This document shows positions 21,352 through 25,379 of a stretch of DNA of 64,000 bases, one piece after another. A program made the position numbers and the translations under genes. The notes beneath the pieces were generated by a model. That model had not been told where the DNA came from. It did not search any database and worked only from the letters and a program-made list of their open reading frames with translations. Source of the stretch: Dehalococcoidia bacterium (GTDB taxonomy: Bacteria > Chloroflexota > Dehalococcoidia > DSTF01 > WHTK01); assembly GCA_965197795.1 (NCBI GenBank), contig OZ240228.1, positions 740,824-804,823 on the forward strand. The letters run 5' to 3'. The stretch's first letter is position 1, and every line of letters begins with the position of its first letter.

Positions 21352-22137
21352 TCAGCGCGCCGCGATCTGGCGCAGGATGGCTTCGACGTCGGCCTTGGCG
21401 CAGGTGAACATTGGTGTGTCCCGCAGGGTGTAGAGGCTGGCCTCGGTATGGCGCAGGCGGCCGACGAGGTCGACGAACTCCTGCGGGTGGTCGGAATCGA
21501 AGGACACGACGAATTCCTGGTCGTCGATCCCGTAGCTGTAGCTGGTGTTGATGCGGACGCCCTTGAACGGGAGCGCGGCGTTGATGTGCTCGTCCATCAT
21601 GCCCTGCCGGGCGTGCGGCGAGAGGTTATACCACGCCCGCGTCTTGACGAACGGGTAGATGAAGAGGAAGTCGCCCTGTCCCGGCAGCAACTCCAGGCCT
21701 TGTCCGGAACCTTCGATGCGATTCACGTACTGTGAGCGCTTCTGCAACGAGAGGAAGCTATATGGGGTGTCGAGGTAGGCGCCCAACCCGGAGGCGTTGA
21801 TCTCCGCCTGCATCTCCTGGAACAGGCAGACGTCGTGCGAGATGCGCCAGAGCATGAAGTCGCAGTCGCTACGGAGGCCGACCAGCGAGTAGGAGCGCAG
21901 GATGAAATCGTTACGCTCAGACCAACGCTGCGTCAGCGCGGCGAACTCGTTGGCAGCGGCCGCGCGTTCGTCGCGGGACAGGCGCCGGAAAGCGGTATCG
22001 AGCTTGAAGAAGGCGTAGCTGAGGAACTGGCGGGGCTGGTGGTCCGCCTCGCGCTGGCTAACCTGGCCGCTGGGGTCGAGGTCGACCGTGCGCCGCGGCG
22101 CCATCGCCGGTGGAGTCTCGCTGCTGTGTTCCGTCAT
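21352..22137 (-). CDS. chdC: Coproheme decarboxylase (ChdC/HemQ; chlorite dismutase superfamily)
   Basis: [21 protein letters not shown] (Y-P-M/F-x-K motif), [14 protein letters not shown]; heme operon context. Confidence 0.8.
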
Positions 22138-23153
22138 CCTGCTTCGGCCTTTTCTGCGCCCGAGGGTTGCAGATCGAAATTGCGCTCGTACAGCGCCTGG
22201 ATCTCAGCGTACTCCACGTCCGTCAGGGATGCCGCCGCGTCGTAGGTACAGAAGTCTTCGAGGCCCTGAACATCGTAGATGTTCGGCAGCACGGACGCGA
22301 CGCAGGGTTCGTGCAGGATGAACTGCAAGGCGAGCTGGCCAATACTGCGGTTTCGAGTCAGATGATCGAGGCGATCGATCTTGAGCAGACCGTCTTCCAG
22401 CCAGGCGCGACGCTTTTCGTTGGTCGTGACCCGCCAGTTCCGGTGGTCGCCTTCGGCGAACTCGGTCTCGCGGCGCACGCTGCCATCGAGCAGGCCGGAG
22501 GAATGCGGCACGCGAACCAGTACGGAGGCCGCGTGACTGGACGCGACAGGGAAGATGCCGCGCCCCAGGCCCTGTTCGAGCAGGTTGTAGATGATCTGGG
22601 GCGATGCCGCGCGACGGCTGATCGCTCCGATGCCTTCGTCGATCTGGCGCGGGTCGATGGCCGGGCCGAGCGCGACACCGAGAGCACCGACGAGCCCCTC
22701 TTCGCGGGCGCGTTCCAGCTCCGACCAGAGATCGTCGTTTTGGATCGCGTCGAGGCGTGGGTTATGGAGTTGATAGAGGTCCACGTGATCGGTGCCGAGG
22801 CGCCGCAGCGACTGCTCCAGAGCCTTACGCATGTAGGCCGGCGACCAGTCGTGCGGACGTTCTTGCTGGCCCTGGGAGGTTGGATGGTTGTAGATGTCGT
22901 AGCCAAACTTGGTCGCGATGACGATTTCGTCGCGATGGTCGCCAAGCGCCTCGTGCAGGATAGTCTCCGCGTTACCGCCGTCGTAGGTATCGGCCGTGTC
23001 AAAGAAGGTGACACCCAGCTCGAAGGCACGGCGCAGGAGATCGACGCCGGTTTCGCGGTCCTTCACGCCCCACCAGGTGGTGCCGACGGTCCAGACCCCG
23101 AATCCGATCGTGGAGACTTCGATATCGGCGCCGCGAATCGTGCGGTACTGCAT
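22134..23153 (-). CDS. Aldo/keto reductase
   Basis: [37 protein letters not shown]. Start re-called to ATG 23153, overlapping the upstream stop. Confidence 0.92.
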
Positions 23154-24289
23154 CAGGCGCTCTCCTTCATCGACTCCGGGTCTACGGCACGAGCCAGGCA
23201 CCACTGCTCGTAGGCGGCGGGGAGGACTTCGGAAGGCTTGATCTCGCTGCGGCCACCCCAGAAAACGTTGGTGTAGGACACCGGCATGGCGATCGAGGCG
23301 AGGTAGTCGTCCATTGCCTGCTTGTGCCGCAACAGCAGGTCTTTGTCCATGCCGTGCGCGACACCCATGATGTTCACGTTACCAAACGCGGGCCCGCCGT
23401 CGCGCCAGTAGGCGTGGGTCAGGATTCCGTGACGGCCGATCTCGCGGCCCGCCTCGATCTCGCGGCCGGTGGGGACAGCCCAGTGGAACAGGGCGTTGTA
23501 GCGCGTGACGCGCTCGCCGGTGCTCAGCGGTTTGACGTGCTCCAGGAAGGTCGAGAAGCGTCCCATGAGCCCCATCGATTCGAGTTCGCGGGCGGTGGCG
23601 ACGAACGCCTCCAGCGTGAGACCACTCTGCAGGGCTCGCTCGCTCCAGATGTCACGAGTCAGTTCATCCGGGCCGAAGTCGCGTTTGAGCTCGGCGAGGA
23701 CAGCCCACTGGCGTGGAGTCAGGCTGGCGACTTCCGTGCCAAGCGTCTCAGCCGGCGCATCGGCGCGATCCCCGGGTTCTAGCAGGCGTCGCCGGATATG
23801 GCCGACACCGAGGACGAAGAGGCGCTTCGCCGGCATGGCGTGGTAGCCGTCCGCCCCGACGCAAGACTGGAGGTACTCGCAGTGCCGCGAGAGGGAGAAG
23901 CCCTGCGGTACCTTGAGCGTCGTCCAGAGCCGATAGTCGTGGCCGGCGGCGTCCGGGTCGGTAGAGCGGAGCACAACGTGGCCGGAGAATGGATCCTCGT
24001 GCACCATGAACTCGAAGGCTTCGTCTACTCGCGTTGTGGGTACCTTCCAGGCGACGAGCGCGCCGGCGGCCAGCCGCGTTGATGCTACCGTCTGGCGAAC
24101 CCGGCGAATCGTTCCGGCGGCCAACATGGCCTGGATGCGCTCGATGACGTCCGCAACGGGCAACGACGCTCGCACCGAGATCTCGCCGAAGGGATCGACG
24201 TGGAATCCGGACAGCTGATCCTCCGAGACCGCGAGGATGGCCGCGTTGGTGGCGTCCTGCAGGGAGACGGGTGTCGTGTTAGTCGCCAT
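23153..24289 (-). CDS. Fused AhbA/AhbB (NirDL-like, Lrp/AsnC fold) siroheme decarboxylase
   Basis: Two Lrp-like repeats ([13 protein letters not shown]...GALVAWKV; GLMGRFSTF...NALFHWAV...HAYWR...N...VAHG); located between hemA and chdC. Confidence 0.75.
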
Positions 24290-25379
24290 CGGCTGCCTCC
24301 CGCGATTCCTGGCCAAACAGATCAGCGAGCGCAGCCGCGAGCTCCTGGTCGCCGGACTGCCGCAGCCGCTGGGAAGGACGGTGAAAAATCTGATTTACGA
24401 GTGTGCGGGTAATCGTGTCGAGCTTCTCGGGCGGAAGTTCAGGATGCAGCCGCAGCGAGCGCATCAGCTCGCGCTGGCGGATGAGCTCGACCTCTTCTCG
24501 CAGCGAGCCGAGGGGTGAGTTGGGCACGTCCGTGGCGAGCCGCGACTCGAGCAGCTCGTGCAGCCGAGTGTTGAGCTGGCCGCGCAGGGCCGCGTCAGGG
24601 CCTGACTCGCGCTGGACGGACAGAAGCGTCGCGAGCAGGAGGACCGGCGCCTCCAGGTCGTCCTTGAGGTTGCGTGGCGTGCCGAGGTCGACGGCCTGGC
24701 GGCGAACTGGCGGGAGCTCGGCGGCGCCCATTTGAGGCGCGGCGCGTCCGAGGCAGGTGACGAGGACGTCGGTGGCTGAGAGGTCGGGCAGCGCGCTGAA
24801 GGGCCGGTACTGGATCTCGGGCGGAAGCGGCGGTGGACGGCGTGCCACCAGCGTGGTGTGGAAACCGAGTGCGCGAGCGCGCTCCGCGACGCGACGTCCC
24901 ATCGGGCCGCCGCCCACGACGAGGAGGCTGCCCGCGGGCTCTATGCCGGCGTGCTCGATGGCGAGGTCGAGCGCGTGGCCGGCGTGACGGTCGAACGAGG
25001 CCTCAGCACGAAGGCTCCGAGCAGCCGCGATCGCCGGCGCGATGAGCCGCCGTATTTCAGGTGGGGCGGCGCTGAAGGCCGTGCGGACCTGACCCAGGAC
25101 TTCGGCCTCGCCAAGCACCAGGGACTCGAGGCCGGCGGCCAGCTTGCTCAGGTGGGCGAGAGCGCCGGCCCCCTGGTACGACCGCGGCGCGAGATCGGCC
25201 CCGTCGCCGGACAGGGAGACGATCTCGTACCGCTGACAGGTCACGATGGGGATGCCCTCGCTCCATTCGAAGAGCGAGCCCACATCTGTCTCCAGGGCGA
25301 GGAGTTCCCTTGGTGAAAGAGACGCTGTCTCCCAGGCGTAGACGCGCAGGTTATCCAGGCTTGGCTGTGCTGCCCTCAC
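24279..25379 (-). CDS. hemA: Glutamyl-tRNA reductase, divergent and short
   Basis: VTCQRYE (TCNR), HLSKLAAGLESLVLGEAEVLGQVR, GGGPMG, VDLGTPRN, LVNQIFHRP. GTG start after GGAGG. Confidence 0.85.
   Translation of the reverse strand: MRAAQPSLDNLRVYAWETASLSPRELLALETDVGSLFEWSEGIPIVTCQRYEIVSLSGDGADLAPRSYQGAGALAHLSKLAAGLESLVLGEAEVLGQVRTAFSAAPPEIRRLIAPAIAAARSLRAEASFDRHAGHALDLAIEHAGIEPAGSLLVVGGGPMGRRVAERARALGFHTTLVARRPPPLPPEIQYRPFSALPDLSATDVLVTCLGRAAPQMGAAELPPVRRQAVDLGTPRNLKDDLEAPVLLLATLLSVQRESGPDAALRGQLNTRLHELLESRLATDVPNSPLGSLREEVELIRQRELMRSLRLHPELPPEKLDTITRTLVNQIFHRPSQRLRQSGDQELAAALADLFGQESREAADGD

Follow-up and report, generated by a model that had tools for sequence, protein, structure and literature searches.

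We identified, in the genome of a Dehalococcoidia bacterium, an operon that probably belongs to an oxygen-adapted route from siroheme to heme b, which would work without AhbC and AhbD and would include an aldo-keto reductase (AKR) as a conserved component. The operon lies in a 64,000-nucleotide (nt) stretch of contig OZ240228.1 (positions 740,824 to 804,823 of the forward strand; hereafter the window). It comprises four co-directional minus-strand genes with overlapping stop and start codons, encoding a glutamyl-tRNA reductase (GluTR)-like protein, a fused AhbAB-type protein, the AKR, and a ChdC-type protein. These genes are predicted to form one translationally coupled unit, which unites GluTR, the first committed enzyme of tetrapyrrole synthesis, with the end of the siroheme-dependent route. 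The features of the locus are given in window positions.

25432 to 25461, minus strand: promoter-like site (TAGACC, an 18-nt spacer, and TAGAAT) upstream of the hemA-like gene; a consensus match only
24279 to 25415, minus strand: divergent glutamyl-tRNA reductase (hemA-like), 378 amino acids (aa), with Pfam GlutR_N and GlutR_dimer
23153 to 24289, minus strand: fused two-module siroheme decarboxylase-like protein (NirDL/AhbAB type, here "type 2"), 378 aa, with two PF17805 modules
22134 to 23153, minus strand: aldo-keto reductase of a heme-cluster-linked orthologous clade, PF00248
21352 to 22137, minus strand: ChdC-type (coproheme decarboxylase-like) protein of the Cld family, PF06778
21114 to 21344, minus strand: small putative membrane open reading frame (ORF) of 76 aa, starting 8 nt past the ChdC stop

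The junctions were read directly from the sequence. The GluTR gene ends in GAT GGC GAC TAA, and the ATG of the decarboxylase gene, preceded by GGGAGG, lies 11 nt upstream, giving an 11-nt overlap. The decarboxylase and AKR genes meet in TGATG and the AKR and ChdC genes in ATGA, and GGGAGG or GAAGGAG precedes two of the operon's start codons. The listed ORFs of the two middle genes are longer than the genes themselves (23153-24316 for the decarboxylase and 22134-23204 for the AKR). Since the homologues of the decarboxylase have 378 aa, its start was placed at the ATG at 24289, and the AKR starts with the ATG at 23153, as do its orthologues. The promoter-like site was the only sigma-70-like match in a consensus scan of the minus strand between 20900 and 25700. 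We tentatively count the 76-aa ORF as an operon member; it is kept, at the same position and with 63% identity, only in the closest relative (L016). A first-pass annotation of this DNA had described hemA, a fused AhbAB, an AKR, and ChdC in one operon with overlapping stops and starts, and both the family matches and the junctions bear this out. Its coordinates, 21352-25379, delimited the right region, except that 25379 corresponds to a GTG, an alternative start codon located 12 codons within the ORF whose listed start is 25415.

The genome is a single contig of 3.2 Mb with an estimated completeness of about 94%. HemE (URO-D, PF01208) and ferrochelatase (PF00762) gave no match in the genome in hidden Markov model (HMM) searches to which control genomes responded, and E. 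coli HemE and HemH had no tblastn match in it at E 1e-3. The AhbC model (TIGR04546) matched only the radical S-adenosylmethionine (SAM) cores of MoaA and of a TrsS-like gene (54 and 41 bits), which were again all that tblastn reached with AhbC sequences from five genomes carrying the type-2 decarboxylase. AhbD-like tblastn queries likewise reached the radical SAM core only, and all 10 radical SAM genes of the genome were assigned elsewhere from their sequences and NCBIfam (MoaA, MiaB, MtaB, HemW, two LipA, TrsS/Tes-like, Rv2578c-like, CUAEP-tail, and QueE). The TrsS/Tes-like gene (C1:958149-959693) was considered as a hidden AhbC and rejected, for it scores 355 bits as TrsS against 41 bits as AhbC and has a methyltransferase neighbor and no heme genes. 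The locus itself (C1:958149-960481, outside the window) consists of this gene, whose 355 bits fall under the TrsS cut-off of 490, and a class I methyltransferase gene after it.

The route to siroheme, on the other hand, is predicted to be complete (GluTR, HemL, HemB, HemC, CobA-HemD, and SirC). A cluster at 1.962-1.968 Mb holds a Fur-family regulator, SirC (NAD_binding_7 and Sirohm_synth_M), HemC, a CobA-HemD fusion, and HemB, and HemL is found at 826.7 kb. Directly after HemL lies a gene for a PNPOx-like split-barrel protein (C1:827937-828413, outside the window), an arrangement shared with a same-genus genome at 62% identity. Heme O synthase and subunits I-III of a heme-copper oxidase are encoded as well. 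A search for corrin methylases found no tetrapyrrole methylases besides CobA in the genome; corrin synthesis is therefore not expected, and CobA would serve only siroheme and heme. Since HemE, ferrochelatase, AhbC, and AhbD are absent and the siroheme route is present, the path from siroheme to ChdC is the only visible heme route. The organism thus appears to need heme and to make its precursors, and past siroheme only the decarboxylase and ChdC are visible. The first-pass annotation had proposed that siroheme is converted to coproheme and then to heme b with ChdC taking the place of AhbD. The genome-wide HMM and tblastn searches found none of the competing routes (hemE, cpfC, ahbC, and ahbD), and the retained siroheme route, the NirDL match, and the gene fusions described below lend the proposal further support. 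It had also stated that AhbC is not in the window, which is correct but understated, because AhbC is missing from the whole genome.

In the route that we propose, Glu-tRNA would be converted to siroheme by GluTR, HemL, HemB, HemC, CobA-HemD, and SirC, and the fused AhbAB-type enzyme would then strip the C12 and C18 carboxyls to give didecarboxysiroheme. Removal of both acetates of rings A and B, without the radical SAM enzyme AhbC, would yield coproheme, which ChdC instead of AhbD would convert to heme b; the AKR would act at or next to these last two steps. AhbC is the only enzyme that the reviews consulted list for the conversion of didecarboxysiroheme to coproheme (PMC7242693, PMC13564367), and its absence from the genome leaves the coproheme route with one step without an assigned enzyme.

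The fused protein is supported as a predicted siroheme decarboxylase of the NirDL/AhbAB type. It has two AsnC_trans_reg2 (PF17805) modules, the first above the cut-off and the second at 22.6 bits (E 3e-4), and a weak match to a NirDL-like helix-turn-helix domain. The type-2 family profile matched NirDL (4CH7) at E 8e-16 over residues 30-319, and AhbA/B (4CZD) was matched too. Furthermore, a Foldseek search with the AlphaFold model (predicted local distance difference test, 82) returned 4CH7/4CZC as the best PDB match (E 1e-17, TM 0.63/0.75), and Lrp/AsnC regulators ranked lower. Two histidines, His104 and His292, do not vary among 16 homologues and correspond to those of the NirDL H-x-Y motifs SHNY and SHCY, which Haufschildt and colleagues reportedly identified in 2014 as essential residues. 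The protein reached 67 bits with the NCBIfam model for AhbB (cut-off, 125) and 44 bits with that for AhbA (cut-off, 140), short of both cut-offs. Type-2 proteins share about 60% identity across phyla and have long invariant motifs of their own; they are about 25% identical to canonical NirDL-type proteins. An AhbAB-type assignment had been given earlier to this Lrp-like protein, and the full-length sequence match to NirDL, together with the fold match, argues for it.

The last protein of the operon contains a PF06778 (Chlor_dismutase) domain (E 5e-54) and is encoded by the only Cld-family gene in the genome. Its best solved relatives are actinobacterial ChdC proteins (9MHQ and 6XUB, E 1e-22), ahead of chlorite dismutases at 1e-16. 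Tyr161 and His184, equivalent to the catalytic Tyr135 and the proximal His158 of CdChdC, are invariant in 40 homologues from type-2 carrier genomes, so that the earlier assignment of this protein as ChdC finds support in its predicted active site. With HemQ_actino it scored 122 bits, which does not reach the NCBIfam cut-off of 235. A further residue, Tyr137 (window positions about 21727-21729), is invariant in 40/40 of the ChdC homologues; actinobacterial enzymes have Phe in its place, four residues ahead of their distal base His118.

The GluTR-like protein is recognized by Pfam GlutR_N (48.9 bits; cut-off, 27) and GlutR_dimer (42.8 bits; cut-off, 22.9). Its 69-77 bits with the NCBIfam hemA models do not reach their cut-offs of 209-429. 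It carries TCQR at the position of the catalytic Cys, where canonical GluTR has TCNR, and it is the only protein of the genome matched by E. coli HemA (28% identity, E 2e-8).

Type-2 decarboxylases were found in at least 596 species of about nine phyla, including Chloroflexota, Gemmatimonadota, Verrucomicrobiota, Planctomycetota, Armatimonadota, Acidobacteriota, and Eremiobacterota. We sampled 51 carrier genomes. A Cld-family/ChdC gene was present in 48/51, CbiX in 28/51, and HemE above 300 bits in 2/51; weaker URO-D matches (about 120-215 bits, in some metagenome-assembled genomes) were treated, without verification, as methyltransferase-type paralogues. Full-length AhbC occurred in about 9/51, beside an AhbD-like gene in most. 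The only carrier with AhbC and AhbD but without ChdC (G045) also lacks the AKR orthologue. The coexistence of the type-2 protein with AhbC and AhbD, in this genome and in others that have ChdC too, means that it also works with the radical SAM enzymes and argues for didecarboxysiroheme as its product. The pattern of the Dehalococcoidia genome recurs among the sampled carriers of all seven phyla named above. In 80 loci, no neighbor of the type-2 gene was conserved across phyla; the gene is mostly an orphan, and its synteny is clade specific.

Gene fusions provide independent evidence that ChdC acts on a siroheme-derived substrate in these bacteria. In a member of another family of Chloroflexota (G315), one locus (L202) holds, in this order, SirC, GluTR, HemC, CobA/HemD, HemB, DUF1802, AKR, DUF6582, a 762-aa fusion protein, and HemL. 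The 762-aa chain (L202:4436-6724) combines ChdC, Rieske [2Fe-2S], and NirDL-type decarboxylase domains. Such triple fusions make up at least 45 protein clusters, and those with a named source come from Herpetosiphonaceae, Ktedonobacterales, or unclassified Chloroflexi. Two-domain ChdC-Rieske proteins occur in at least seven further genomes, and precomputed Pfam hits place ChdC in single proteins with decarboxylase, SirC, HemD, or FAD-oxidoreductase (PF07992) domains as well. The ChdC-Rieske fusions suggest how ChdC might be supplied with its oxidant when CgoX is absent.

Other redox proteins were observed near these genes. A PanE/ApbA-type NAD(P)H reductase is encoded directly upstream of ChdC on the same strand in Eremiobacterota-type loci (L148, L151, L152, L154, and L155), at a spacing of 9-31 nt or with an overlap, and so holds the position that the AKR has in Chloroflexota. 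In Planctomycetota (L023, L025, L085, and L094), a flavin-reductase-like gene (PF01613, E 3e-23) lies about 80 nt upstream of the type-2 decarboxylase gene on the same strand. The occurrence of Rieske, FAD oxidoreductase, PanE-like, and flavin reductase proteins near ChdC or the decarboxylase fits a need for a dedicated supply of oxidant or electrons in the absence of CgoX.

For the AKR, the match to the TIM-barrel domain PF00248 (E 1e-42) spans positions 2-290 of 291. Its Asp-Tyr-Lys-His tetrad is intact, as seen when DTADTY, ATK, and LHNP are aligned with B. subtilis YhdN (1PZ1). The order GluTR, AhbAB, AKR, ChdC is kept in the closest relatives. All 49 orthologues examined (49/49) fall into one clade with 100% support, separated by a long branch from the other AKRs of the genome, and its heme-linked members are spread throughout it. 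In 27/49 loci from three phyla the AKR adjoins ChdC or heme genes, and ChdC is the immediate neighbor in 20 of these 27. In Chloroflexota, Armatimonadota, and Gemmatimonadaceae, orthologues have ChdC, AhbAB, SirC, or HemB as neighbors. Other Dehalococcoidia-labelled genomes have AKR-ChdC pairs. G005 encodes CbiX, SirC, AhbAB, and AKR on one strand of one contig, and G010 has AKR-AhbAB. A Chthonomonadales genome shows AKR, WD40, ChdC, with a ChdC of a different subfamily, and five Gemmatimonadaceae show CobA/HemD, HemC, HemB, AKR.

Besides, the AKR accompanies the canonical decarboxylase: Chloroflexota with a NirDL-type enzyme have SirC/HemC, AKR, ChdC and also ChdC, DUF1802, AKR. A genome of the same genus as ours (G328; L213, 6924-13788) encodes AKR, canonical NirDL-type AhbAB, ChdC, canonical GluTR, an HAD hydrolase, HemL, and a PNPOx-like protein. 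The seeming absence of the decarboxylase from that genome is apparent only, as the canonical enzyme is present instead. Compared with their counterparts in the window, the G328 decarboxylase and GluTR show only 26-27% identity, against 47-48% for AKR and ChdC; thus, the types of decarboxylase and GluTR differ within one genus. Because members of one AKR clade are linked to heme genes across three phyla, the AKR belongs to the pathway, and we conclude that this clade is a predicted pathway component. Its role may be that of a substitute for AhbC or of a redox helper to ChdC. The first-pass annotation had listed the AKR only as an operon member, which it is; the linkage and the single clade mark it as a conserved component of heme clusters and not a bystander.

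In one group of Chloroflexota, a DUF1802 protein (about 190 aa, PF08819, E 8e-71) is a conserved part of the ChdC-AKR cluster. Its gene lies between ChdC or HemB and AKR (L200, L202, L204, L206, L209, and L211) and is absent from the Dehalococcoidia genome. We regard the protein as another candidate for the deacetylation step.

Several observations weigh against the proposed route. Each enzymatic activity, the identity of the deacetylase, and the source of the ChdC oxidant are what we infer from observed genome gene content, homology, fold, key residues, co-occurrence, gene fusions, and AKR-heme gene linkage. In NCBIfam, the families nearest to the four proteins are hemA, AhbB/AhbA, AKRs, and HemQ, and all scores lie below the equivalog cut-offs, so that each protein is a divergent family member. 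The actinobacterial distal base His118 is replaced by Glu in our ChdC (motif NRIEG). A CbiX-type sirohydrochlorin chelatase was not found in the genome, and SirC would therefore have to be bifunctional and insert iron. In the survey, the AKR was present in 8/9 AhbC-positive and 33/42 AhbC-negative genomes, that is, without phyletic complementarity to AhbC. Nine carrier genomes, mostly of Verrucomicrobiota, have neither AhbC nor the AKR, and the AKR therefore cannot be a universal AhbC replacement. The AhbC survey covered type-2 carriers, as distinct from Chloroflexota with canonical NirDL-type clusters, and negatives in metagenome-assembled genomes depend on assembly completeness.

Within the proposed route, the function of the AKR can be read in two ways. 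It is possible, if doubtful, that the AKR is a redox helper for ChdC and that ChdC or an unlinked enzyme carries out the deacetylation. Because CgoX, as a maker of H2O2, has no part in a siroheme-fed route, ChdC would need an oxidant or electron supply driven by NAD(P)H, and the partners of ChdC do vary by lineage: the fused Rieske and FAD/NAD(P)H oxidoreductase (PF07992) domains, the PanE/ApbA-type reductase of Eremiobacterota-type genomes, the flavin reductase upstream of the decarboxylase in Planctomycetota, and the AKR itself, which stands next to ChdC in most of its linked loci. The AKR is found with or without AhbC, and G045, with AhbC and AhbD and no ChdC, has no AKR orthologue. Against this, AKRs move hydride to carbonyls and have neither flavin nor metal, so that direct reduction of a Rieske centre or of O2 is impossible. 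AKR and Rieske domain share clusters and are therefore not alternatives, and in Gemmatimonadaceae the AKR has HemB, HemC, and CobA/HemD as its neighbors instead of ChdC. A 2026 Chem Rev review records that flavin mononucleotide can replace H2O2 for ChdC (PMC13564367), which favors the helper function. We think it rather unlikely that the AKR, alone or with ChdC, is instead an oxygen-tolerant, non-radical-SAM replacement for AhbC that modifies rings A and B by NAD(P)-dependent chemistry. In the L202 supercluster, all known steps from Glu-tRNA to heme have genes except the AhbC step, and of the unassigned genes there (AKR, DUF1802, and DUF6582) only the AKR is conserved across lineages; our genome lacks AhbC and has the AKR translationally coupled between decarboxylase and ChdC. 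The lack of complementarity with AhbC counts against a replacement, but heme synthesis often has O2-dependent and O2-independent isoenzymes side by side, and genomes with both AhbC and AKR could be accounted for in this way. The Verrucomicrobiota that have neither enzyme also count against it, its chemistry is our own speculation, and we know of no AKR that cleaves a C-C bond.

The two remaining explanations concern the other enzymes. The type-2 decarboxylase might remove more groups or use a substrate such as iron-uroporphyrin III, giving coproheme without an AhbC-type step. Its low identity to the canonical NirDL-type enzymes, its unusual conservation across phyla with motifs of its own, and the fact that type-2 and ChdC are the only proteins common to the nine genomes without AhbC and AKR would agree with this, as would the binding of iron-uroporphyrin III in the NirDL active site (title of PDB entry 4CZC). 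It nevertheless seems improbable, since the roughly nine carriers that pair the type-2 enzyme with full-length AhbC and AhbD-like genes imply a didecarboxysiroheme product, the protein has no additional domain compared with NirDL, Chloroflexota with canonical enzymes have the same AKR-ChdC module, and the CobA-HemD fusion and SirC indicate flux through precorrin-2. Finally, the genes could be functionally unrelated: the organism would import heme, the AsnC-like protein would regulate transcription, and the Cld-family protein would bind heme or act as a peroxidase. Public annotation does call the type-2 family an Lrp/AsnC regulator, all four proteins are under the NCBIfam cut-offs, and genome surveys predict heme auxotrophy for many Chloroflexota (bioRxiv 10.1101/2021.01.11.426183). 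We give this explanation hardly any credence in view of the translational coupling with the only GluTR of the genome, the complete early tetrapyrrole pathway, the ChdC-AhbAB fusions of other bacteria, the presence of ChdC with the decarboxylase in nearly all carriers surveyed, and a fold closest to NirDL, ahead of Lrp/AsnC regulators in the same search.

For the proposed siroheme-to-heme b route, the deacetylase could be sought among several proteins, none of which we favor strongly. An unlinked enzyme such as HemW is the foremost, still tentative, candidate. ChdC itself is a doubtful one; in our reasoning, its tyrosyl radical, known to attack the propionates of rings A and B, could also react at C3-H and C8-H of these rings, and aromatisation would expel acetate. 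The AKR appears unlikely, and the type-2 decarboxylase much less plausible still. With some reserve, we propose that in aerobic bacteria of several phyla the AKR, ChdC, or both turn didecarboxysiroheme into coproheme and that no radical SAM enzyme is involved.

The finding is wider than the first-pass annotation had it, pointing to a widespread variant of the siroheme route that is independent of AhbC and AhbD, has a conserved AKR, and contains one step without an assigned enzyme. If the AKR, ChdC, or both do take over the AhbC step, this would be a new enzyme solution for it; ChdC and its Rieske or reductase partners included, the whole would amount to a fourth variant of heme biosynthesis, adapted to oxygen. 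The finding also reveals that an enzyme is missing, for which there are concrete candidates (the AKR, ChdC itself, DUF1802, and HemW), and offers a testable operon of only three genes. According to a 2026 review, known enzymes appear to cover all known heme-synthesizing organisms (PMC13564367), and heme auxotrophy was predicted for many Chloroflexota in a survey of genomes that allowed for unknown pathways (bioRxiv 10.1101/2021.01.11.426183; see also PMC10991733). If the route is real, many genomes scored as heme auxotrophs would count as heme producers, which suggests that KEGG-style pathway scoring makes wrong auxotroph calls, with effects on cultivation strategies (bioRxiv 10.1101/2021.01.11.426183). 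In full-text literature searches, no paper was found to connect ChdC or siroheme decarboxylase with an AKR or with a Rieske domain. The archaeal hybrid of AhbABC and ChdC is already known; the AhbC-less bacterial version with an AKR has no mention in the searchable literature.

Two further features of the window were noted. A gene for a DUF6391 protein with conserved His and Cys (NHALEH and TPHCGTN) lies at 25638-26135 on the minus strand, 222 nt upstream of the operon; it was considered as an operon partner and dismissed, as it is not conserved beside the operon in related loci. Four minus-strand genes at 458-4082 resemble a sulfate assimilation cluster (transporter, sulfate adenylyltransferase, APS kinase, and PAPS/APS reductase), a putative assignment judged on N-terminal sequences with no family search made; they would represent the cell's other siroheme demand.

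Among known systems, the Ahb pathway of Desulfovibrio and Methanosarcina barkeri (AhbA/B, AhbC, and AhbD) likewise starts from siroheme and uses an AsnC-fold decarboxylase; ours is a homologue of AhbA/B and of NirDL. Both systems lack HemE and ferrochelatase, and Desulfovibrio has a CobA-HemD fusion, as does our genome. Unlike that pathway, the present one has no radical SAM AhbC or AhbD, ChdC stands in the place of AhbD, and no AhbC replacement has been identified; its decarboxylase, which comes from a divergent family, is fused into a single chain, and its host is an aerobe with a heme-copper oxidase.

NirDL of Hydrogenobacter thermophilus (4CH7 and 4CZC), which acts in heme d1 synthesis, has the same two-module single chain and fold, and both H-x-Y histidines are conserved. 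It differs in sequence (about 19% identity) and in context, as no nirS, nirJ, nirF, or nirN accompanies our gene, and the invariant motifs of the type-2 family (28 protein letters, not shown) are the family's own. With the coproporphyrin-dependent pathway of Actinomycetota and Bacillota (HemE, CgoX, CpfC, and ChdC), the system shares its last enzyme, including the Tyr and the proximal His. Since HemE and CpfC are absent here, coproheme cannot come from coproporphyrin. The route would also be without a peroxide source of the CgoX type, and our ChdC departs from the enzyme of that pathway in having Glu in place of the distal His118 and the extra invariant Tyr137 nearby.

The closest parallel is Haloferax volcanii, where the completion of the Ahb route under aerobic conditions by a ChdC (PitA, a ChdC-ABM fusion) has genetic support and AhbC and AhbD are retained (PMC5746218). 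As in Haloferax AhbABC plus PitA, a ChdC homologue would end a siroheme-derived route here, and HemE and CpfC are absent (CgoX was not searched for here). Unlike the Haloferax system, ours is bacterial, has neither AhbC nor AhbD, includes a conserved AKR, and has a ChdC without ABM fusion, and its relatives add Rieske, DUF1802, flavin reductase, or PanE-like partners.

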